DNA of 64,000 nt, from assembly GCA_048941015.1 (NCBI GenBank), contig JBHLNZ010000001.1:32001-96000 (forward strand), read 5' to 3'. Under the pieces are notes generated by a model. That model did not search any database, was not told where the DNA came from, and saw only the letters and a program-made list of their open reading frames with translations. Of the stretch, positions 9,026 to 48,378 are shown in pieces. Position 1 is the first letter of the stretch. Every line of letters begins with the position of its first letter. The translations under genes and the position numbers were made by a program. The stretch is from Promethearchaeota archaeon. GTDB taxonomy: Archaea; Asgardarchaeota; Lokiarchaeia; Sigyniarchaeales; SOKP01.

Positions 9026-9706
9026 TTACCAAATAAGTGGAATTAATTTTTTCTTGGTTCTTTGAGCATATTCTTTATATCCCTCAAGTTCTTTATGAAG
9101 CATTCGATCTTCTAAAATTGTGCGTATCACTATTCCAGCAATACCAAGTGCAGCAGGAATTAATGAAAAAAGAGAACCAAGGGCTAAACAATAAAAGATT
9201 ATAAATAGAATAAATCCTAAATACATTGGATGCCGTACAATTCGATAAGGGCCAGAAGTAATTACTGTATGGCCTCGATCTTTTTGAATCTCCACTGCTT
9301 TTGATAAAAAGGTATTTTCTTTCATAACTAAGAATATTATTACCAATCCCAATGACATTCCTATAAATCCAATTATTTCCACTAAAAGAGGAACACTTGA
9401 CCAACCATATTTCTTTTCAAAACCAGGAATTATAAATGTTGGAAAAAAGCCAAATCCCATGAAAAGCATGACAATCTTATCCCACTTTTCTTTAAATTGT
9501 GGTTTAGCCCTCTTTTGAAGCATCTCGGGGTCATGTTTACTAAAATATAAAATATAGCTCGTAAAGAAGGTAAAAAATATTCCAAGATAAATCCATACTT
9601 CAAGCCAAAAAAAACTTCCAAAAGGGATAAATAACCCTAATCCAAGGAAAGCTGTAACTAATACAACAAGACTAATTAAAATCGGTTTAGATATTTTTTT
9701 AGGCAT
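9026..9706 (-). CDS. Isoprenylcysteine carboxyl methyltransferase / PEMT family membrane protein
   Basis: GPYRIVRHPMYLG motif, EDRML..EL.GY.EY. Confidence 0.88.
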   Translation of the reverse strand: MPKKISKPILISLVVLVTAFLGLGLFIPFGSFFWLEVWIYLGIFFTFFTSYILYFSKHDPEMLQKRAKPQFKEKWDKIVMLFMGFGFFPTFIIPGFEKKYGWSSVPLLVEIIGFIGMSLGLVIIFLVMKENTFLSKAVEIQKDRGHTVITSGPYRIVRHPMYLGFILFIIFYCLALGSLFSLIPAALGIAGIVIRTILEDRMLHKELEGYKEYAQRTKKKLIPLIW

Positions 9707-9750: not shown

Positions 9751-10791
9751 TTAGATATTTCGTAATCTTGGATCTAGTGCATCCCTTAATCCATCGCCCA
9801 AAAGCATAAATCCAAGAACTGTAATTAATATCATCAATCCCGGCCAGAACACTGCCCAAGGTGCGTCAAATAAACGAGCCATAGAAATCCAAATTTCCTT
9901 TCCCCAATCTATTAACCCTGGATCAGTAAAACCAAGAAATGCTAAGCCTGCTAAGTTTAAAATAACTGATCCAATGTCAAAAGTCACCGAAATTATAATT
10001 GGATTAATAACATTAGGAATTATATGTTTAAACATTATTCTACGGTTGTTAGCACCGACAACTTTAGCTGCTTGTACATATGGCAATTCTTTTGCTTGTA
10101 GGACCGAAGCTCTGATTAATCTTGCATAAGATGGTACTCCTATTATACCAAAAGCGAACATAAAAGCTTCAATTCTTTGTCCTATTATTGCTACAAACAC
10201 TAACGCAAGAATCAAACCTGGAAAGGAAAGAAGTACATCCATTATTCTCATCAAGATCAAATCTAACCAACTACCAAAATATCCTGCCATAGTACCAAGT
10301 AAGATTCCTACTATTACACTAAAACCAACAGCAGGAAATGCTATTACTAATGAAGCCCTTGCCCCATAAATTATTCTTGACAAAACGTCTCTTCCTAAAC
10401 TAGTAGTACCTAATAGATGTTCTGGAGATGGTGGTTCATATGAACCTAAAAACATTCCCATAGTTTGGCTTTCAAAACTATAAGGAGCAATCCATTGGCC
10501 AAAAATCGCAAAGGTAATTACCACAAAGATAATAATTATTCCAACTAAAGTTAAAAATGATTTCAGTCGCCGAATAAATTTCCGCTTACTAATCGTTTTT
10601 TCATATTCAAACTCTCTTTTTGACAATTCTTCTAATCGAGAACCCGGCACAAATAAGAATTTTATGTTTTTAAAAATCCATCGCAAGATAATTATTAATG
10701 TATTCTGCTTTTCCTCTTCCTCTCTCGACTCCTCTGTTTCGATCTCCTTAAATTCAATAGTTTCTTCTAATTCCGTCATTTCTTTAACCAA
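9751..10791 (-). CDS. oppC: Dipeptide/oligopeptide ABC transporter permease (OppC/DppC), orphan
   Basis: HLLGTTSLGRDVLSRIIYGAR, YVQAAKVVGA (EAA loop), GDGLRDALDPR. Confidence 0.92.
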   Translation of the reverse strand: MVKEMTELEETIEFKEIETEESREEEEKQNTLIIILRWIFKNIKFLFVPGSRLEELSKREFEYEKTISKRKFIRRLKSFLTLVGIIIIFVVITFAIFGQWIAPYSFESQTMGMFLGSYEPPSPEHLLGTTSLGRDVLSRIIYGARASLVIAFPAVGFSVIVGILLGTMAGYFGSWLDLILMRIMDVLLSFPGLILALVFVAIIGQRIEAFMFAFGIIGVPSYARLIRASVLQAKELPYVQAAKVVGANNRRIMFKHIIPNVINPIIISVTFDIGSVILNLAGLAFLGFTDPGLIDWGKEIWISMARLFDAPWAVFWPGLMILITVLGFMLLGDGLRDALDPRLRNI

Positions 10792-10809: not shown

Positions 10810-11472
10810 TTAGAATGTGAAAATCACGTCAAAGGGAAATTTATCAAAATTTTTTTCTAAGGTTCTTTTAAATCCCTCTGAAATTGGCTCAAATCCTTTT
10901 CCAATATAATTTCCAATTGAAATATAATCAGGTTTTATGTCTAAAAGAAAATTCTTTAAACTTTTTAAGTTATCAACATTATCATTAATCCCCCTAAAAA
11001 ACATTATATAAATTCCTAAATGACCTTTGTAAGTCCTCTTGAATCTGACCATCCCGTCTAATAACTCTTCTAAACTTAAATCAACACAACAAGGATTCAC
11101 CCTTCCAAAATTTGAAGGCTCGATACTATTAATATTAACTGCTATGAAATCACATTCTAACAATCCTTTTTGCGCTAATTTATTACATAATATGGAGCAA
11201 TTTACATACGTCCCAATTTTTTGATTTGGGTGAGCTTTCTTAATAAGATTGATTAAAAATTTTAATCCATGGAATATATATTGATCATTTGGAATTCTCA
11301 ACCATATATAGTCAGGACTTCCATTTTGGAATAAAAAATGATTTACTTCTCCAATGATTTCCTCGGTAGGAAAATCTTTTACTGAGATTGACTTCAGCGA
11401 ATCAAAATGAATTGGCATTATTATACCAAATCGCTTGTCATGCTGAATTTCATTAATATATTTATATTCCAT
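10810..11472 (-). CDS. Degenerate radical-SAM-like barrel protein lacking CxxxCxxC
   Basis: YVNCSIL, FGRVNP, MFFRGINDN, IKPDYI resemble the C-terminal part of small Fe-S oxidoreductase radical SAM proteins; no cluster motif. Confidence 0.5.
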   Translation of the reverse strand: MEYKYINEIQHDKRFGIIMPIHFDSLKSISVKDFPTEEIIGEVNHFLFQNGSPDYIWLRIPNDQYIFHGLKFLINLIKKAHPNQKIGTYVNCSILCNKLAQKGLLECDFIAVNINSIEPSNFGRVNPCCVDLSLEELLDGMVRFKRTYKGHLGIYIMFFRGINDNVDNLKSLKNFLLDIKPDYISIGNYIGKGFEPISEGFKRTLEKNFDKFPFDVIFTF

Positions 11473-11512: not shown

Positions 11513-14449
11513 CTAATCCTCGCTTACATCTTTAAAAAGTAGTCTTTCTGAAGGCAATTTCTTAGATTTTATCTTATCTATCCTTTCAAAACATTGTTTT
11601 GCTTTCTCATCATTACCTAGTGCCTGATAAGTTCTTCCCAGCTTTCTATATGTATCAAATACATACCATCCTGTAGGATTTAATTCTAAAGCCGTCTTGA
11701 ATTCTTTGATTGCTTCTTCATATCGCCTAGCCCACATTAAAACTTCTCCATACGTATCGTGATAATTACCAACATCTTGACCAATAGTAACTAACTTTTT
11801 ACCTGTTTCTAATGCTTCCTCTATTCTATTAAGCCTTCCTAAGAAAATTGTTTTATTATTAAGCATATCAAATTCATCGGGGTACTTATCGAGTGCAGTT
11901 TCACAAACTTCCAATCCTAAATCATCCTCACTAATCTCATATGCAATTAAGGATTTAAGTTTAAGAAGAGTTATCTCTTCCTTAGGAAATTCCAATATTA
12001 GTTTATCTAGTAGCATTAAAGATTCATTTGGTTGTTCGGATGAAAAAAGAAGCCAACATTTGTGCCTTTTGTAATCTAGAAGTATAGGTACTAATTCAAT
12101 CGCTTTATCGATCGCTTTTATTGATTCTTCATGCATTCCTATTTGTTCCATTACCATTGATTTTAGGTCATAATATCTCGCTTGATTTAGCTTATTTTGA
12201 TCCAATGATATAGTCATATCAATCTCGGTAAGAAATTTATCTGGTTTTATTTGTGCTTCACTGAAATTGTAGATAAGATCGTAACCATTAACTAAAGCTC
12301 CTGCTAAAGTTGCGATCGGATGATTTGAATGGCGATCTTGAACAGATCTAGCTACTTCTAAGGCTTTATTGAACTTCCCTTGCGTTAAATAAGAATAAAT
12401 TAAGATGAATGATACGGAAGTCTCCAATTTCGGATTCTTATCAAAAAGATTAATAATAATATCTTTTTTTATTATTCTCTTTGCCTCTTTATACCTATGG
12501 ATTATGCTGAGTAAAATTGCTTTTAGAATATAAAACTGTTTATCCTTAGGATTTAATTTGATTATTTTATCTATTAGTTCAAAATCTTCTTCATGAGATA
12601 TAACGCAACATTTCCTATTATACATTATAAAAATAATTTTTGTTTTTAATGCTAAAAGATTCTGTGAATCGCTTTTTAATATATTATCAACAATTTTAAC
12701 TGCTTTTTCATAATCGCCTTTATAAAGCAAGATATATGCTTTTTCGCATAATAATGAGGGATTACTTGCTATTTCCAAGCCTTCATCAATAATATAATCC
12801 GCCTCATCAAATTCTAATAAATAAAACAACGTAATTGATTTCAAAAGATAACCAATATACACTTCAGGATATTTCCTAATAAGTTCTTCTGATAATCTAA
12901 TTGCCTCTATTAAATCAAAAGAATTTGTTGCTACAAGATCTCTTACGATTAAATCTTCTAAATCATTAAACTTCTCTTTATTTTTATTATAAACAGATTT
13001 AATTTTCGATTTTTTACCCTTTAAGAGTAATTCATTTATTTCGTCAAAAATGTCTGCATTTTCATGATTATATAATTTCTTGAATTCAATGGTTGTCAAA
13101 AAATCTGATTTGGTTAATTGCATCACATCTAATGCTTTAAAAATTGAATCATCTATACTATAGTAATATTCATCTTCCATTGATTCTTGTTTTATTATCG
13201 AAGGTTCAAATGATTGAAACTCCTCAAATATATTCTGCCATATAAACCCTTCTCTTTTAGCATCATCTGAAATTAATTTCTTTTCTGTTCCAATTTTATA
13301 AGCGAGATATTTAATATATTCGGGTAAAAATTTTCGCAATGAATCTTTTAATTCATTAACAAAAATATTTTCACATATTTCATTAATAATGTTGTTTAAA
13401 AGGCTAGAAACATTAAATCTTGAACTTATTTCTCTCTCATAACCTGCTAATTTATTTAAGTATGTATATTTTGTAATATAATCATCAATAATTGCTCTTA
13501 ATATACGTTCTAACTTTTCATTTGCTTGAAAATAAAATTCTTTATCAGGAAATACGTCTAATCTGAAAAATTTCACAGGGTACAAATCCTCATCTACTAT
13601 TTTCTCGATAAAGAAATCAAGGGTAGTTTGTTTAATATTATACTTCTTTGCAAACGCCTGAGGAGAAACATACTCTGGATATTGATCTGGATGATTAATT
13701 GAAAGAAATAATAAGATCTTATTGAAATCCTCCTCTTCTTCTAACATATTTTCTACTTTTGAATAACTCATCTTTAGAGTATTGTTTAAAAATCGAAATT
13801 TGATATTATCATCTATAATGTCATATTTATCGTAGAAATCATTTGTATACATGGTTATTTCTTCTATTCGCTTGCTTTCCTCCTCCAAAATTGATTGGCG
13901 ATCTAGATCATAGGTTTTCAGCATCCTAAAGTACTCTACTTTACCAGTAGAAGTTATATAATATTCTTTATTCTCGTTCTTAATGAAACCCTTATCAATC
14001 AAAAAATTTTTACTCTTGGATAATGAGGATTGATTAATACCTAATGGTGGCTCTCGAAAATCGGACCATTTGCAGGATTCATTATTATATAACATCCATA
14101 AAATCCAATGATCATAATTCCTCTTTCTCAAAATTGCTTTTGGAGGATATACTAATTTCGGTCTTCCCAATTCCTCATCATAGGAAATCTCATTAAAATG
14201 GGATCTACCTTCAGTTGTTATCCTATAATGTCCCCTTTTAAATCTATCAATATAATCTTTATTAATTAGATCATTGATATAATTTGAAAGAGTTGATTCA
14301 CTGATCTCTGATTCTTCTGTAAAATCCCGCCATTCGCAATATTCATTATTAGAAAGCATCCAAAGAATTATATATTCATAATTTGGATTTGTTCCAGGAG
14401 GAGATAATATCTCTTTTGGGGGTAAAATTAAATTTTTTGAGCTGCTCAT
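11513..14449 (-). CDS. Tandem winged-helix + TPR-repeat protein (putative transcriptional regulator / peptide receptor), copy 1
   Basis: Two internal repeats NY(E/D)x(I/W)ILWMLxNNExCxWxDF..S(T/S)LS..L..K..I....Y.IT..G; C-terminal TPRs (e.g. YHDTYGEVLMWARRYEEAIKEFKTALELNP); paralog at 45186-47681. Confidence 0.85.
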   Translation of the reverse strand: MSSSKNLILPPKEILSPPGTNPNYEYIILWMLSNNEYCEWRDFTEESEISESTLSNYINDLINKDYIDRFKRGHYRITTEGRSHFNEISYDEELGRPKLVYPPKAILRKRNYDHWILWMLYNNESCKWSDFREPPLGINQSSLSKSKNFLIDKGFIKNENKEYYITSTGKVEYFRMLKTYDLDRQSILEEESKRIEEITMYTNDFYDKYDIIDDNIKFRFLNNTLKMSYSKVENMLEEEEDFNKILLFLSINHPDQYPEYVSPQAFAKKYNIKQTTLDFFIEKIVDEDLYPVKFFRLDVFPDKEFYFQANEKLERILRAIIDDYITKYTYLNKLAGYEREISSRFNVSSLLNNIINEICENIFVNELKDSLRKFLPEYIKYLAYKIGTEKKLISDDAKREGFIWQNIFEEFQSFEPSIIKQESMEDEYYYSIDDSIFKALDVMQLTKSDFLTTIEFKKLYNHENADIFDEINELLLKGKKSKIKSVYNKNKEKFNDLEDLIVRDLVATNSFDLIEAIRLSEELIRKYPEVYIGYLLKSITLFYLLEFDEADYIIDEGLEIASNPSLLCEKAYILLYKGDYEKAVKIVDNILKSDSQNLLALKTKIIFIMYNRKCCVISHEEDFELIDKIIKLNPKDKQFYILKAILLSIIHRYKEAKRIIKKDIIINLFDKNPKLETSVSFILIYSYLTQGKFNKALEVARSVQDRHSNHPIATLAGALVNGYDLIYNFSEAQIKPDKFLTEIDMTISLDQNKLNQARYYDLKSMVMEQIGMHEESIKAIDKAIELVPILLDYKRHKCWLLFSSEQPNESLMLLDKLILEFPKEEITLLKLKSLIAYEISEDDLGLEVCETALDKYPDEFDMLNNKTIFLGRLNRIEEALETGKKLVTIGQDVGNYHDTYGEVLMWARRYEEAIKEFKTALELNPTGWYVFDTYRKLGRTYQALGNDEKAKQCFERIDKIKSKKLPSERLLFKDVSED

Positions 14450-14497
14450 TTTTTAAAATTCCTCTTGTAACTTCATTTAACTCCTATAATAACGTAT

Positions 14498-14596
14498 AGT
14501 TCGAAGTTATATTTATACTTTACACTTCGAAATAAAGTATGAACCATTGCCGAAGTTCAAACTTCACTGCGAAGTTCGAAGTACAAACCTATAAAT
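14498..14596. promoter_or_regulatory. Divergent promoter region with repeated GAAGT/ACTTC operator-like sites and TATA box
   Basis: AGTTCGAAGT at 14498 and 14573, ACTTCGAA 14524, palindrome GAAGTTcaAACTTC 14552-14565, TATAAAT 14590-14596. Confidence 0.6.
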
Positions 14597-14678
14597 GAAT
14601 TATTATCCTAATAAAAATTAATAACAAAAAAGAAAAAACGAGAAAGAAACACAAAAAAAAGTTAAGAGGTTATAAAAA

Positions 14679-14918
14679 ATGGCACAAGTAGAATTAAGAA
14701 AAGTTGAGCCAAAAAAATGTGTTGATATAGAATTAATAAAATTAGATGAACTCCCTGTTCCCGAAGTCATAGAAGAAAAGGAAGAGGAGATTATAAAGAA
14801 AAAAGGATTGAAAGGCATTATAAATAAATTTCGTAATCATGCCAAATATCATGAAGAATTCATAAATATTGAAAAAGTTAAACGTCAATTAATTTATAGG
14901 AACTTTGGAGTTAATTAA
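14679..14918 (+). CDS. Small protein (79 aa), CVDIE...YRNFG family, copy 1
   Basis: GAGGT at 14666-14670; shares CVDIE and NIxxVKxQxxYRNFG with 47857-48132. Confidence 0.85.
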   Translation: MAQVELRKVEPKKCVDIELIKLDELPVPEVIEEKEEEIIKKKGLKGIINKFRNHAKYHEEFINIEKVKRQLIYRNFGVN

Positions 14919-14960
14919 AATTTTTTCAAGTAAGATTATGTTAAAAATTGATGATAAAAA

Positions 14961-15044
14961 ATGAGTTTAAAAGAAAAAATAAAGGTATGGGTTTGTAGAC
15001 ACTTCTGTTCTGCGTCATGCCGAGCGGAAATCTGCGCTGAATGA
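14961..15044 (+). CDS. 27-aa Cys-rich peptide MSLKEKIKVWVCRHFCSASCRAEICAE
   Basis: Manual translation; inside the small-ORF operon; GC-rich relative to flanks; Cx3Cx3Cx4C. Confidence 0.55.
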   Translation: MSLKEKIKVWVCRHFCSASCRAEICAE

Positions 15045-15082
15045 AATTATAATTAAAATAAAAAAAAAGAGGTACAAAAAAA

Positions 15083-15148
15083 ATGGCAAGAAAAGAAAGA
15101 TTGATAATAATTAGAAATGATGAGTTTAACTCGAGATATTTTAGATAA
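15083..15148 (+). CDS. 21-aa peptide MARKERLIIIRNDEFNSRYFR (conserved peptide family)
   Basis: GAGGT at 15069-15073; ungapped similarity to peptides at 15206 and 48177. Confidence 0.8.
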   Translation: MARKERLIIIRNDEFNSRYFR

Positions 15149-15205
15149 TTAATTTCAAAATATAAAAATATATTCAAAATAAAAATTAAAAAGAGGTAGA
15201 AGGAA

Positions 15206-15274
15206 ATGAACGAGAAAAAAAGAATAATTGTGTTAAAAAACGCGAGCTATAACGTAAAATATTTCAAATGGTAA
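15206..15274 (+). CDS. 22-aa peptide MNEKKRIIVLKNASYNVKYFKW (conserved peptide family)
   Basis: GAGGT at 15193-15197; ungapped similarity to peptides at 15083 and 48177; followed by T-tract. Confidence 0.82.
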   Translation: MNEKKRIIVLKNASYNVKYFKW

Positions 15275-15285
15275 TCAAATTCACA

Positions 15286-15298
15286 TTTTTTTATTTTT
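15286..15298 (+). terminator. Oligo-T tract after the peptide operon
   Basis: TTTTTTTATTTTT; equivalent T8 tract at 48252-48259 in copy 2. Confidence 0.4.
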
Positions 15299-15317
15299 AA
15301 GACGTATTAAACAAATC

Positions 15318-15406
15318 CTCCAATTTGTTTGAAGCTTTCCGTACAATCACTTAATAGGATGATACCCACGCACCTGGGCAGACGAGTGCTCAGGTGCATT
15401 CCATCC
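15318..15406 (+). ncRNA. Conserved structured non-coding element, copy 1 (function unknown)
   Basis: 54/64 nt ungapped identity to 48283-48346; stem GCACCTGGGCA/TGCTCAGGTGC with a G-U pair; outer GGATG/CATCC. Confidence 0.6.
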
Positions 15407-15652
15407 ATCAACAATTAATGCAACCATAATTTCATAAAATTCTGATCATTTATGACTCCTGCAGCCGTCTTCTTTGTTGGAATAATCATCCCAAATCTGT
15501 TAATAGTCTTAATAGATGGGTTTGGTGGAGTCATCTTTTAAAATAAACATAAATTTTTTAGAGTTGTTTTTTCCTTTTTTCGATTTTTTTTTTAAATATA
15601 TACGATAAAACCAGACTATATTTCCTGAACTATTTATTAAAGGTTAATTAAG

Positions 15653-45081: not shown

Positions 45082-45155
45082 GGGGTGGTAGTCCAGCTTG
45101 GTAGGATTCTTGGTTCGGGATCAAGAGGTCGAGGGTTCAAGTCCCTCCTACCCCA
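45082..45155 (+). tRNA. trnP: tRNA-Pro (anticodon CGG), intronless, CCA not encoded
   Basis: Acceptor GGGGTGG/CTACCCC + A; anticodon arm CTTGG-TTCGGGA-TCAAG; T arm GAGGG-TTCAAGT-CCCTC. Confidence 0.95.
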
Positions 45156-45185: not shown

Positions 45186-47681
45186 TTATTCTAAAAACTC
45201 CTTAACTTCGATTATACTGTTCCTTGCTCTTTCTTTCCATTCATCCATATTCTCAAAATCACAGATACATCTCGCTGCGTGATCTAAGCCCTTCTCATAA
45301 CTCTCTTTTGCTTTTTCATACTCTTCAAGGGCTCTATAAGCATCTCCCATCTTGATAGCAGTTTGATAGCAGTACCATCCATTAGGCTCTATTTCCATAG
45401 CTTTCTGGAATTCTTGGATTGCTTGTTTGTATTTTCCAAACCATAACAAGATTTCACCATATGAATCATGATAATTTCCCTCATCAGGAGCAATTTCTAT
45501 TAATTTCTTACCGATCTCAATTGCTTCTTCTTTTTGGTTTAATTTTCCAAGTTCGTACAATTTACTATTGAAAAGTTCTGGATCAGAGGGTTCTTTTTCC
45601 AATAATTCATTAGTGATCTTTAGACTTTCACTATAATCTCCCATCCAATAGAGAAATGAAGACTTCTTTTGTAAAATCTTCTTTTCCTGATCTGGAAATT
45701 GTTTTAACAATTCATCCGTTAATCTAATTACCCCTTCAAAATCTTTTTCAAATTTCATTAATATTTTTATTTTCGAGAAATACAACCAAAGACTTTTTGG
45801 TTTTAAATTATTGATCTCATTTGTTTCTTCAAGCGCTTCTTGATATCTTTTTAATTCTTGTAATACAAAGCTCTTTAATTGATGGATAAGGGCTTTATTA
45901 GTATTATCAGTTTCTAATGAAATAGCTTTATCGGTAACGCTCAAGAAATCCTTATCTATATCCGACTTTCCTTTCTCAAAGTTATAAATTAAATTATATC
46001 CATGAACTAGTGCTTTTGCAAGATATGCTATTGAGTTTTTAGGGTGATCCTGTAGTAACTCATTAGCAACTCTTAATGCTTTCTTAAATTTACCTTGATT
46101 CAAATATATGAATGTAAAAATAAAAGAGCGACTTAGAGCTAACTGAGAATTAACAGAGACGATTGATTGATCAACTCCTTCTTTTAACAATTTTTCGGCT
46201 TCTTTATGTCTATTCAAATAGCAAAGAAGAATTGATTTAAGTATAATTAAATTTTGATTTTCTGCCTCCTTTTGTAGTTCTGATTCAGCTATCTCTAACG
46301 CTTCTTTTAGTTCCCAATCATCAATTAATTCCTGGATTTTGATGATTTGCTTATTCTCAGAAATATAAATCGATTCTAAAATACCTAAAATACTTGGATA
46401 TAAAAAGAAATAAGGATCACTATGATTTATTTGTAAATTTTCAAATTCGTTCATAAATTCTTGTATCGCAATTCCTCTGAGTTTATCATCTGTTTCGATC
46501 AATCTTCTTTGCTTTTCGATTTTATATGCTAAATGTTTGATATATTCTGGTAAAAATCTTTTTAACGCTTCTCTCATCTCTCCATTAAAAATATGATCAC
46601 AGATTTCATTTAATACTTGATTAACAACAATTGAGATATACATAACAGGAGGTTCACTAGAAGTATTATCGTAAAATTCATTTAAGTAAGTGAATTGTGT
46701 AATATAATCATCAACAATAGCTCTTAAAACTCTTTCAATTTTCTCACCAGCTTGGAAATAATAAGTACGCCCCTCATCATCTTCTAATTTGAAGAATTTA
46801 ATGGGAAATATTTTTTCGTCAATAATTTTCATGATAAAAAACTTCAATATCTCTTCTCTAATATTGAATTTTAGACAAAAGTCTTTAGCGGAAATGTAAT
46901 TAGGATACTGATTTGGATGATTAATTGCGATATATAATAAAATCTTGTTAAAATCTTCTTCAGCTATAAAGTTTTCAGATTTAGAATAATCTAATTTTAA
47001 TATATTGTTTAAAAGGCGAAACTTTATACCATTATCATCAATATTATACTTCTCAAAGAATTTACTCATTTTGTCAGTAATCTCTTTTACTCTTTTACGC
47101 TCTTCATCTAAAATAGATTGACGATCTAAATCGTACTCCTTTAAGATTTCAGCATAGGCAATCTTACCAGCATTAGCAATTCTATATTTATTATTCTCTT
47201 TTTTTATCAATCCATCCTCTTGTAAAAAATTCAAATTCTTCGATAATGAAGAATTGTTAATAAAAATTGGATTATCATCTCCTTGAAAATCCGACCATTT
47301 GCAATAATTATTATTATAGCATATCCATAAAATCCAATGGTAATAATTACGTCTTTTTAAGATAGTTTTTGGAGGATAACTTAATTTACGTTTAATTTTT
47401 CTCGATTTTGATAACTGTCTAAACCTTTCTTCACCCTCAGGGGTAATCTGATACTTTCCTCGTTCCTCATTGATGATAAATCCTTTATTTATTAACTTGT
47501 TTCTATAATTTGAGAATGTACTTTGACTAATATTAATTGGATCGTCTAGAAAGTCTGACCATTCACATTCCTCGTTATTAGATAACATCCAAAGAATAAT
47601 ATGTTCATAGTTTTTTCTTTCTGCATCCAGGATTTCTTTTGGTGGATAATTGGTTATTGCTGTTTTACTCACAAAAATCAC
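45186..47681 (-). CDS. Tandem winged-helix + TPR-repeat protein, copy 2
   Basis: NYEHIILWMLSNNEECEWSDF, YPPKTILKRRNYYHWILW, YDLDRQSIL, GNYHDSYGEIL shared with 11513-14449; fewer TPRs. Confidence 0.85.
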   Translation of the reverse strand: MIFVSKTAITNYPPKEILDAERKNYEHIILWMLSNNEECEWSDFLDDPINISQSTFSNYRNKLINKGFIINEERGKYQITPEGEERFRQLSKSRKIKRKLSYPPKTILKRRNYYHWILWICYNNNYCKWSDFQGDDNPIFINNSSLSKNLNFLQEDGLIKKENNKYRIANAGKIAYAEILKEYDLDRQSILDEERKRVKEITDKMSKFFEKYNIDDNGIKFRLLNNILKLDYSKSENFIAEEDFNKILLYIAINHPNQYPNYISAKDFCLKFNIREEILKFFIMKIIDEKIFPIKFFKLEDDEGRTYYFQAGEKIERVLRAIVDDYITQFTYLNEFYDNTSSEPPVMYISIVVNQVLNEICDHIFNGEMREALKRFLPEYIKHLAYKIEKQRRLIETDDKLRGIAIQEFMNEFENLQINHSDPYFFLYPSILGILESIYISENKQIIKIQELIDDWELKEALEIAESELQKEAENQNLIILKSILLCYLNRHKEAEKLLKEGVDQSIVSVNSQLALSRSFIFTFIYLNQGKFKKALRVANELLQDHPKNSIAYLAKALVHGYNLIYNFEKGKSDIDKDFLSVTDKAISLETDNTNKALIHQLKSFVLQELKRYQEALEETNEINNLKPKSLWLYFSKIKILMKFEKDFEGVIRLTDELLKQFPDQEKKILQKKSSFLYWMGDYSESLKITNELLEKEPSDPELFNSKLYELGKLNQKEEAIEIGKKLIEIAPDEGNYHDSYGEILLWFGKYKQAIQEFQKAMEIEPNGWYCYQTAIKMGDAYRALEEYEKAKESYEKGLDHAARCICDFENMDEWKERARNSIIEVKEFLE

Positions 47682-47752
47682 AATTAGTTCTTTAATACCG
47701 TTATAATATAATTATTGAAACTACAATTTAAAGTTACTTATACAAAATCTAA

Positions 47753-47818
47753 TAATGAACTTTCATTAAACTACATAGTTCATCTGAACTATATGTAGAA
47801 TAACTATAAATCGAAGTA
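47753..47818. promoter_or_regulatory. Divergent promoter with inverted-repeat operators and TATA box
   Basis: TAATGAActTTCATTA 47753-47768; ATAGTTCAtcTGAACTAT 47775-47792; TATAAAT 47805-47811; TCGAAGTA 47811-47818. Confidence 0.6.
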
Positions 47819-47856
47819 TATCTTATAATTAATTAAGAAAAAAAAAGTGATTAAAA

Positions 47857-48132
47857 ATGGTAGAAGCAAACTTAAACGGATTAGAAACAAAGAATAATAT
47901 TAATTGTGTAGATATCGAAAAGATAATCAAAGAATGTGTTTCAGAACTACAAGAAGAGAAGGCTAAAGTCTCAGTGATAAAAGATAATAATAAGAGTCGC
48001 TTGGATTCAAAATCAAGATCACTTAGAAGGCAATTAAATAAAAGTAAACATAATAATAAATACATTAACGAATTAAAAAATATAAAATATGTGAAGAGCC
48101 AGGTTCATTACAGGAATTTTGGCACCTATTAA
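47857..48132 (+). CDS. Small protein (91 aa), CVDIE...YRNFG family, copy 2
   Basis: GTGAT RBS at 47847; shared motifs with 14679-14918. Confidence 0.85.
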   Translation: MVEANLNGLETKNNINCVDIEKIIKECVSELQEEKAKVSVIKDNNKSRLDSKSRSLRRQLNKSKHNNKYINELKNIKYVKSQVHYRNFGTY

Positions 48133-48176
48133 TAAATCAAAAATAAAAATAAAAAAATGAAAGAGATGGAAACAAA

Positions 48177-48245
48177 ATGAAAAAATTTGAACGAATAATT
48201 ATGATAAAGAACGCAGGGTATAATACACAATATTTCAGATTCTAA
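48177..48245 (+). CDS. 22-aa peptide MKKFERIIMIKNAGYNTQYFRF (conserved peptide family)
   Basis: Manual translation; ungapped similarity to 15083 and 15206 peptides; GAGATGG upstream; T-tract downstream. Confidence 0.82.
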   Translation: MKKFERIIMIKNAGYNTQYFRF

Positions 48246-48282
48246 ATTAAATTTTTTTTCTAATATTTTTATTAAATTTATT

Positions 48283-48378
48283 CTCCAATTTGTGTAAAAC
48301 TTTCCAATCGATCACTTAATAGGATGATACGCACATACCTGGGCAGAGAAGAATGAATGCTCAGGGGCGTATCATCTT
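48283..48378 (+). ncRNA. Conserved structured non-coding element, copy 2 (function unknown)
   Basis: Stems AGGATGATACGC/GCGTATCATCTT and CCTGGGCA/TGCTCAGG; homologous to 15318-15406. Confidence 0.6.

Follow-up and report, generated by a model that had tools for sequence, protein, structure and literature searches.

A two-copy cassette of a winged-helix and TPR regulator gene, divergent small open reading frames and a stem-loop in a Promethearchaeota genome

The window analysed here is a stretch of 64,000 nucleotides (nt) with about 30% G+C (contig JBHLNZ010000001.1, positions 32,001 to 96,000, of assembly GCA_048941015.1), which belongs to a Promethearchaeota genome (Asgard archaea of the Loki type) assembled into 144 contigs (3.59 Mb, 95% complete). 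It harbors two copies of a gene cassette, of which the second, copy 2, is the main subject of this work. Copy 2 contains a large gene encoding a protein of 831 amino acids (aa), composed of winged helices and a solenoid of tetratricopeptide repeats (TPR). Across a gap with the features of a divergent promoter, two small open reading frames (ORFs) lie on the opposite strand, encoding a 91-aa product, hereafter the Y protein, and a 22-aa peptide that starts after a spacing of just 44 nt. They are followed by an oligo-T tract, a conserved motif and a stem-loop (Table 1).

Table 1. Features of cassette copy 2, of the reference copy 1 and of selected neighbouring genes, in window coordinates (AF2, AlphaFold2; SD, Shine-Dalgarno).
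Feature	Position	Strand	Basis or remark
Copy 2 cassette	45186-48377		
Large regulator gene	45186-47681	-	831-aa ORF, GTG start
TPR solenoid, residues 429-830	45192-46397	-	Pfam, AF2, Foldseek
Third winged-helix-like domain, residues 241-310	46752-46961	-	AF2 model
Tandem winged-helix domains, residues 25-92 and 113-182	47136-47609	-	AF2, Pfam, profile matches
Divergent promoter region (putative), 175-nt gap	47682-47856	.	Sequence, inverted repeats, family layout
TATA-like box for the large gene	47726-47733		Sequence
8+8 inverted repeat with GAAC/GTTC half-sites	47775-47782 / 47785-47792		Between the TATA-like boxes, plus single sites
TATA-like box for the small-ORF operon	47804-47811		Sequence
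SD-like AGTGAT	47846-47851		Ahead of the 91-aa ORF
Y protein gene, 91 aa, NCVDIE and YRNFG motifs	47857-48132	+	ORF, family alignment A4
SD-like GAGATGG	48163-48169		Ahead of the 22-aa peptide gene
22-aa peptide gene	48177-48245	+	ORF, kept in orthologues
Oligo-T (T8), probable end of the small-ORF transcript	48252-48259	+	Sequence
Conserved 26-nt motif	48280-48305	+	Upstream of the stem-loop; shared with copy 1
Stem-loop, right-hand cassette end	48322-48377	+	Folding, likeness to copy 1, orthologues
tRNA-Pro(CGG)	45082-45155		Convergent with the large gene of copy 2
Copy 1 cassette (reference)	11513-15410		Large gene, 79-aa ORF, Cys peptide, two short peptides, stem-loop
Copy 1 large ORF	11513-14449	-	978 aa
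Copy 1 79-aa ORF	14679-14918		Counterpart of the Y protein gene
Copy 1 Cys-rich peptide	14961-15044		27 aa, four Cys
Copy 1 short peptides	15083-15148 and 15206-15274		21 and 22 aa
Copy 1 motif and stem-loop match	15315-15382		
Copy 1 radical-SAM homologue	10810-11472		220-aa ORF
Copy 1 OppC-like permease gene	9751-10791		
Copy 1 ICMT-like methyltransferase gene	9026-9706		

A sequence-only reading of this DNA had described copy 2 as a diverged version of copy 1, with a paralogous large protein, one ORF of the CVDIE...YRNFG type, one 22-aa peptide and the same hairpin in the same order and orientation, lacking the Cys-rich peptide and the second short peptide of copy 1. All of these elements and both absences were recovered. 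The 831-aa and 978-aa proteins share 41% identity over 665 aa (E 8e-147), with 53-54% identity in the N-terminal 420 aa and 38% in the TPR part, and the 91-aa ORF is 35% identical to the 79-aa ORF of copy 1 (E 1e-8). The 22-aa ORF is related to both the 21- and 22-aa ORFs of copy 1. Four small ORFs accompany the 978-aa protein and two the 831-aa protein. The 26-nt motif and stem-loop are 84% identical between the copies, a value above that of the surrounding coding parts. Divergence between the two copies is greatest in the small products and the TPR part. The genome-wide count proposed in that reading gave two copies each of the large gene, the 91-aa ORF and the stem-loop, all located in the window.

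The AF2 model of the 831-aa protein (mean predicted local distance difference test score, pLDDT, of 82) comprises, from the N-terminus, two winged helices, a long helix, a third unit resembling a winged helix-turn-helix (wHTH), a helical region, a disordered linker (residues 389-422) and a TPR solenoid of about 400 aa with 22 helices. The third unit folds as three successive helices with a β-hairpin and lies within the most conserved middle region of the protein. Pfam searches returned HTH_45, HTH_34 and MarR for the winged helices and TPR_1/2/8/12/14/19 for the solenoid, and neither Pfam nor the model places an enzymatic domain in this architecture. Of the sequences with solved structures, those nearest to the N-terminus belong to DNA-binding wHTH proteins, namely PhiH1 repressor-like, AspA, HxlR and PadR (weak E-values). 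The two winged-helix repeats are 48% identical to each other, and their predicted recognition helices are nearly alike in both cassette copies. Foldseek matched the TPR part to generic superhelices (OGT, designed CTPR proteins, APC subunits), and no RRNPPA receptor is present among the PDB matches listed; likewise, for homology to that family Pfam and NCBIfam return generic TPR and wHTH families only. Searches of the large proteins against PADLOC, Pfam and NCBIfam yielded nothing beyond generic winged-helix and TPR matches. Orthologues of the 831-aa protein are 89-99% identical to it, and the ratio of non-synonymous to synonymous substitution rates (dN/dS) of the large gene among them is 0.13-0.14, with higher values in the TPR part (0.14-0.20) than in the N-terminus (0.07-0.09).

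The intergenic region of copy 2 follows a plan common to 47 large-gene/~90-aa-ORF intergenic regions, in which one TATA-like box faces each way and repeats of GAAC/GTTC half-sites lie between them, followed by an A-rich leader and an SD-like word. These half-sites are often arranged as a palindrome similar to GAAGTTCGAAC or as direct repeats with a spacing of about 11 nt, and their 6-mers are 8-31 fold enriched over flanking DNA in the 47 loci. The promoter region of copy 2 is nearly invariant in five orthologues, and the corresponding region of copy 1 contains five or more half-sites. The claim that the two copies have different operator palindromes therefore holds for the arrangement of the sites, not for the motif, because both copies use the same GAAC/GTTC-type half-sites. 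Since the DNA-reading helices are shared as well, cross-talk between the copies at the DNA level is possible. The two copies could, as a hypothesis, represent orthogonal channels; their TPR parts and peptides have diverged, but not their DNA-reading parts or half-sites.

Several properties show that the small ORFs are genuine genes. In the contigs orthologous to copy 2 both of them stay in frame, and changes in the 22-aa peptide are conservative or synonymous, with one non-synonymous against two synonymous changes in one pair and, in another, proportions of non-synonymous (pN) and synonymous (pS) differences of 0.15 and 0.41, respectively. The dN/dS of the Y gene among four orthologous alleles is 0.25-0.52, and pooled values for eight orthologous peptide groups are 0.12-0.46, and in seven of these groups it is the third codon position that varies most. 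An SD-like word stands ahead of 59 of 64 family peptides versus 59 of 210 other short ORFs from the same regions, and where peptides occur in tandem, up to three of them, each has its own SD-like word. A run of T5 or longer, which acts as a terminator in archaea, was found within 40 nt of the last peptide stop in all 42 loci. As the loci are related, such counts and their P values overstate independence, and the dN/dS values, being Nei-Gojobori estimates, are rough in AT-rich DNA. The Y protein is conserved at its N-terminus and at its YRNFG-type C-terminus and variable in the middle, and a Y-family profile retrieved 107 clusters among 1.84 billion representatives, nearly all of them 60-125 aa long and aligned over their whole length. 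Pfam, NCBIfam and PADLOC yielded no family for the peptides or for the 91-aa protein; for the latter, the ESM Atlas offered no usable neighbour either. Strict regular expressions for YRNFG and the peptide matched nothing outside the window, as these families are too diverged, and tblastn with ORF listing was used instead. The sequence-only reading had left room for a synteny confined to the two copies with dN/dS near 1 in the small ORFs; in fact the synteny spans dozens of genomes, and small-ORF dN/dS is 0.1-0.5.

Of 36 other genomes sampled from the genus, 33 contain relatives detected with the N-terminal 420 aa (2-8 each). The same search yielded one relative in the single genome of a neighbouring family, and 14 genomes of the family to which the order's three sampled single-contig genomes belong gave none. 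Overall, 314 places encoding relatives of the large protein were located in public genomes (one genome per species), all labelled as Asgard, and a protein search with the middle region (residues 185-420) gave 850 relatives, for which the names listed are all Asgard-labelled or unnamed metagenome and the annotation is merely "TPR protein" or generic regulator. Family members fall into length classes of about 450, 630, 830-850 and 990-1015 aa. Two kinds of small ORF recur divergently upstream of their genes: one of 70-95 aa, in which start and tail are conserved and a basic stretch is present (alignment A4, 36 members), and ORFs of 21-29 aa, one to three in number, that begin with charged residues and have an Ile/Val run and an Asn/aromatic end. 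Among de-duplicated loci with enough upstream sequence, in which peptides were detected by regular expressions, the ~90-aa ORF occurs in 20 of 29 loci of the 830-850 class, and 23 of these 29 have exactly one peptide; in the ~630 class, 9 of 19 loci show peptides and the ~90-aa ORF is almost never present, and the ~990 class has the ~90-aa ORF and mostly two or three peptides. More small ORFs thus accompany longer TPR regions. Across otherwise different neighbourhoods, no partner of the large gene except the small ORFs is constant. The cassette is a real unit, conserved and selected, and not a chance pairing. Some family members are interrupted: the large gene of L142 (1392-3901) is split into ORFs of 628 and 201 aa, and in other genomes a single in-frame TAG or TGA is present in several paralogues. 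Such members are probably pseudogenes or sequencing errors.

On these grounds, we tentatively favour the interpretation that the large protein is an autoregulated wHTH transcription factor that uses its TPR part to sense the small products of its own cassette, making it an analogue, not a homologue, of RRNPPA regulators. The tandem winged helices of the 831-aa protein would bind the GAAC/GTTC repeats between the back-to-back promoters and control both its own gene and the divergent operon for the 91-aa protein and the 22-aa peptide. The TPR solenoid would be the sensor, binding the peptide and/or the conserved tail of the Y protein and so closing a feedback loop, and the peptide would act either inside the cell or after export and re-uptake, that is, in true cell-to-cell signalling. 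This interpretation is supported by the combination of wHTH and TPR domains without an enzymatic one, together with the DNA-binding nature of the nearest solved relatives; by one half-site family placed between two TATA-like boxes in 47 loci and near-invariant in orthologues; by the signs that the small ORFs are genuine genes; by the correspondence between TPR length class and small-ORF set; by the faster divergence of the TPR part relative to the N-terminus; and by the independence of the peptide from any one downstream gene (see below).

Other observations weigh against a sensor of this kind. Neither sequence nor top structural matches connect the large protein with RRNPPA receptors; the peptide sequences contain no signal sequence and no membrane or hydrophobic segment; and no transporter or peptidase is attributable to copy 2. 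The co-variation of receptor and small ORFs at the level of length classes is confounded by shared ancestry. In addition, a radical-SAM gene tightly linked to the cassette in the nearest clade fits a different logic, and a near-identical strain carries a strongly different Y gene beside a large protein that is 92-100% identical through residue 672 (both discussed below). Prediction of a complex between the 831-aa and 91-aa proteins (alignments A6 and A4) gave a score of 0.00 with an uncertain fold for the partner, and speaks neither for nor against binding.

The nearest functional parallel is the RRNPPA family of Firmicutes (Rgg/SHP, ComR/XIP, PlcR/PapR, NprR, PrgX, AimR), with which the cassette shares the overall plan of an N-terminal DNA-binding domain joined to a C-terminal TPR part, here the putative sensor, and the occurrence of several paralogous receptor-peptide pairs per genome. 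The adjoining short ORF of such systems also has its counterpart, the 22-aa ORF being divergent from the receptor gene, conserved and under purifying selection; in Rgg/SHP, too, the short ORF is divergent, about 22 aa long and basic at its start. RRNPPA proteins are defined by an N-terminal HTH DNA-binding domain and 5-9 TPR motifs (PMC9765709), as opposed to the solenoid of about 400 aa and 22 helices in the cassette regulator. Their single HTH is of the XRE type, whereas the cassette regulator has two or three winged helices and no detectable homology to them beyond generic TPR repeats. The cassette further differs in its additional ~90-aa partner protein, in its archaeal host and archaeal promoter layout, and, for copy 2, in lacking a signal peptide and Opp, PptAB or Eep genes. 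As for transport genes around cassettes, the operon of copy 1 includes the OppC-like permease and MFS_3 pumps occur elsewhere, with neither at copy 2. Among archaeal one-component regulators with winged helices (HTH_45, MarR/PadR/HxlR-like; PhiH1 repressor-like, AspA), the N-terminal domains find their matches, and binding sites are likewise expected beside the TATA box; these regulators are, however, far smaller than the cassette proteins of 630-1015 aa and lack the tandem duplication, the third wHTH-like domain and the very long TPR solenoid. TPR receptors of C-terminal peptide tails include Hop, which binds the Hsp70 EEVD tail, and PEX5, which binds PTS1. By pure analogy, the conserved aromatic/basic tails of the cassette's small products could fit a TPR groove, although these tails vary between classes.

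According to another explanation, which we regard as doubtful but worth serious consideration, the TPR part senses a protein partner or a metabolite, and the Y protein and the peptides are regulated products that act elsewhere, for instance on membranes, ribosomes or small GTPases. A divergent promoter with operator-like repeats indicates co-regulation only, not sensing. A wider regulon is also suggested by the ~630 class, in which one or two Ras-family GTPase genes follow the peptide array on the same strand (36 genes in 27 of 80 loci; L087:2632-3183, L097, L108, L110, L112, L125 and others). The Y allele, moreover, has been replaced with no matching change in the receptor. Between the window and L145, a contig of a near-identical strain, the large gene is 96-100% and the promoter 96-99% identical at the nucleotide level, and regulator, promoter and peptide together stay within 88-100%, while the Y ORF alone is 68-69% identical (window 47870-48132 versus L145:1645-1920; pS 0.54, pN 0.21). 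This comparison indicates that variation in Y is not mirrored in at least the first 672 residues of the receptor. Four distinct Y alleles occur among five orthologous contigs. The mosaic may reflect either allele exchange confined to the Y ORF or an assembly chimera; it is reminiscent of pherotype loci, and a chimera of metagenome assembly could also produce it. Purely regulated output is less easily reconciled with the number and type of small ORFs tracking the TPR length class, and with their being the sole constant partners of the large gene. In 12 loci (L118:5965-7752 and 11 others) an M3-family oligoendopeptidase F gene lies convergent with ~630-aa regulators, where a connection with peptide turnover is conceivable but the linkage may reflect synteny alone.

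It is unlikely, to a slightly greater degree, that the cassette is a locus for RiPPs (peptides made by the ribosome and modified after translation), with the 91-aa protein and the peptides as precursors that are modified by a radical-SAM enzyme and exported by an MFS transporter, and the large protein as pathway regulator or peptide-presenting scaffold. The large gene is followed, 28-45 nt downstream and on the same strand, by an intact 238-aa radical-SAM gene (PF04055) in the seven loci that are nearest to copy 2; a homologue (31% identity, E 4e-43) occupies the matching position in copy 1. At least 11 loci of the 830-850 class have a gene for an MFS_3 'secretion effector' transporter after the peptide, and the peptides have a charged, leader-like start, a β-strand-like run and a conserved Asn/aromatic end. 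Winged helices can also act as RiPP recognition elements (RREs). In streptococci, Rgg/SHP regulators are reported to lie next to radical-SAM RiPP (RaS-RiPP) operons (PMC13361665); similarly, in the relatives of the cassette, regulator and short peptide adjoin precursor-like ORFs, a radical-SAM enzyme and a transporter. The Cys-rich peptide of copy 1 would suit this scheme too. It has a close homologue in the L093 cassette, about 790 nt upstream of its large gene, with which it shares the pattern W.CR.FCSASCRAE.C.E; because this homologue sits in the cassette of another genome, the Cys peptide, too, represents a real gene family.

Such chemistry would, however, have been lost in the source genome or be supplied in trans. 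Copy 2 has no radical-SAM gene, its large gene being followed by the tRNA-Pro gene, and the copy 1 homologue is degenerate, a 17-residue deletion having removed the CxxxCxxC cluster motif. The enzyme is missing from most cassettes and intact only in relatives, where, unlike in RaS-RiPP operons, its gene is predicted to be co-transcribed with the regulator and not with the peptides; it is short, and library searches assigned it to neither a SPASM nor an RRE family. A consistently linked protease is lacking, and no NCBIfam or Pfam precursor family matches the short ORFs. The MFS gene of copy 1 is not of the recurrent MFS_3 type, and across the family none of the radical-SAM, MFS_3 and Ras-GTPase neighbours is constant. 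The flanking genes, which had been called unrelated between the copies and used to define the module boundaries, do differ: past the large gene of copy 1 lie the degenerate radical-SAM homologue and, beyond it, the permease and methyltransferase genes, with an MFS gene past the stem-loop, and copy 2 is flanked by the tRNA-Pro and a 301-aa gene on the one side and by a gene for a 193-aa membrane protein past the stem-loop on the other. The tRNA-Pro gene, located 30 nt past the stop codon of the 831-aa ORF, is kept in orthologous contigs that reach that point, and it was the sole Rfam match at gathering thresholds.

The sensing interpretation has a more far-reaching form, which we consider improbable as it stands, namely a native Asgard system of cell-to-cell peptide communication. 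Here, the 22-aa peptides and/or a processed Y tail would be exported, re-imported and read by the TPR part, with several channels of diverged specificity per genome and exchange of Y alleles between strains. If true, archaea would have a counterpart of RRNPPA quorum sensing that arose convergently and that, in some lineages, would be wired to small Ras-like GTPases.

Past the oligo-T tract, 77 nt after the peptide stop and more than 120 nt before the next start, lies the stem-loop. Folding of the plus strand gave z-scores of -2.9 for copy 2 and -3.9 for copy 1, and this strand folds better than the other, on which its G.U pair is a mismatch. The stem-loop follows the peptide in the copy 2 orthologues L145, L142 and L147 and, at the same position, the peptide of a different cassette in another species (G036:C189). 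Six sequences retain the 8-bp upper stem, where one C-G pair is replaced by U-A and G.U pairs by A-U, and the lower stems differ in sequence with pairing kept; by these compensatory changes, in a small sample, the element qualifies as a probable conserved structured RNA. A BLAST search with the stem-loop found nothing in the first 30 related loci and almost nothing in 42 genomes of the genus, and a structure-based pattern search was needed to recover the copies in G036 and G032. Its core was also found outside regulator cassettes, in L054 (G032:C194, 15-78 and ~960-1036) and L136 (G036:C11, 1480-1543). Two of these extra copies, in G032, flank tandem leucine-rich-repeat genes and one adjoins a gene for an ICMT-like membrane protein; in G032 some 150 nt separate the 26-nt motif from the stem-loop, after which the motif recurs in inverted orientation.

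Because the similarity to L145 ends within a few bases past the stem, where a different gene follows, the stem-loop marks the right-hand boundary of the cassette, in independent agreement with the boundary drawn from the flanking genes. It could serve as a 3'-end element, a small RNA or a recombination site. At permissive thresholds, Rfam matched it to snR85 only (21.7 bits against a gathering score of 37, E 0.87). A role as H/ACA guide small RNA, which calls for a two-sided pseudouridylation pocket in the hairpin, a K-turn or K-loop and an ACA box past the stem, was rejected on anatomy: the internal loop has 8+4 nt in copy 1 and is almost absent in copy 2, and ACA triplets follow the stem at varying distances. 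An integron attC-like reading, raised solely by the position at the cassette boundary, was also set aside, no attC consensus boxes being seen by eye. In both window copies the order of peptide, stem-loop and membrane-protein or MFS gene recalls attenuation by a leader peptide (upstream ORF), in which short ORF and stem-loop would regulate the downstream membrane-protein gene. This explanation is close to refuted by the oligo-T directly after the peptide stop in all 42 loci, by the distances of the stem-loop from the peptide stop and the next start, and by the tandem peptides with their own SD-like words. Furthermore, as the near-identical strain has an unrelated and oppositely oriented gene past the stem-loop, the peptide is not tied to a downstream gene. 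Finally, although many spurious short ORFs occur in this sequence of 30% G+C, the notion that the small ORFs, too, arose by chance in AT-rich DNA between genes is refuted for practical purposes by their conserved frames, dN/dS well below 1, SD-like words and terminators, and by independent gene calls of the Y family in metagenomes.

Little is known of gene regulation and cell-to-cell communication in Asgard archaea, and full-text literature searches found no description of an archaeal peptide-sensing regulator of the cassette kind. By analogy with the systems compared above, the cassette may represent a circuit of a regulator and an adjacent micro-peptide built from unrelated parts in these archaea. 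The present analysis defines a large lineage-specific family, with 314 loci in public genomes and 850 proteins in metagenomes, whose parts are the regulator, an operator-like motif, the ~90-aa partner, peptides of 21-29 aa, a terminator and the stem-loop, and adds to the known gene content selected micro-proteins that gene callers mostly miss. Some of the cassettes are linked to radical-SAM enzymes, MFS_3 pumps and Ras-family GTPases. The two natural paralogues in one genome provide material for tests of specificity, and the predictions are open to in vitro experiments with synthetic peptides and recombinant domains that do not require the organism to be cultured.

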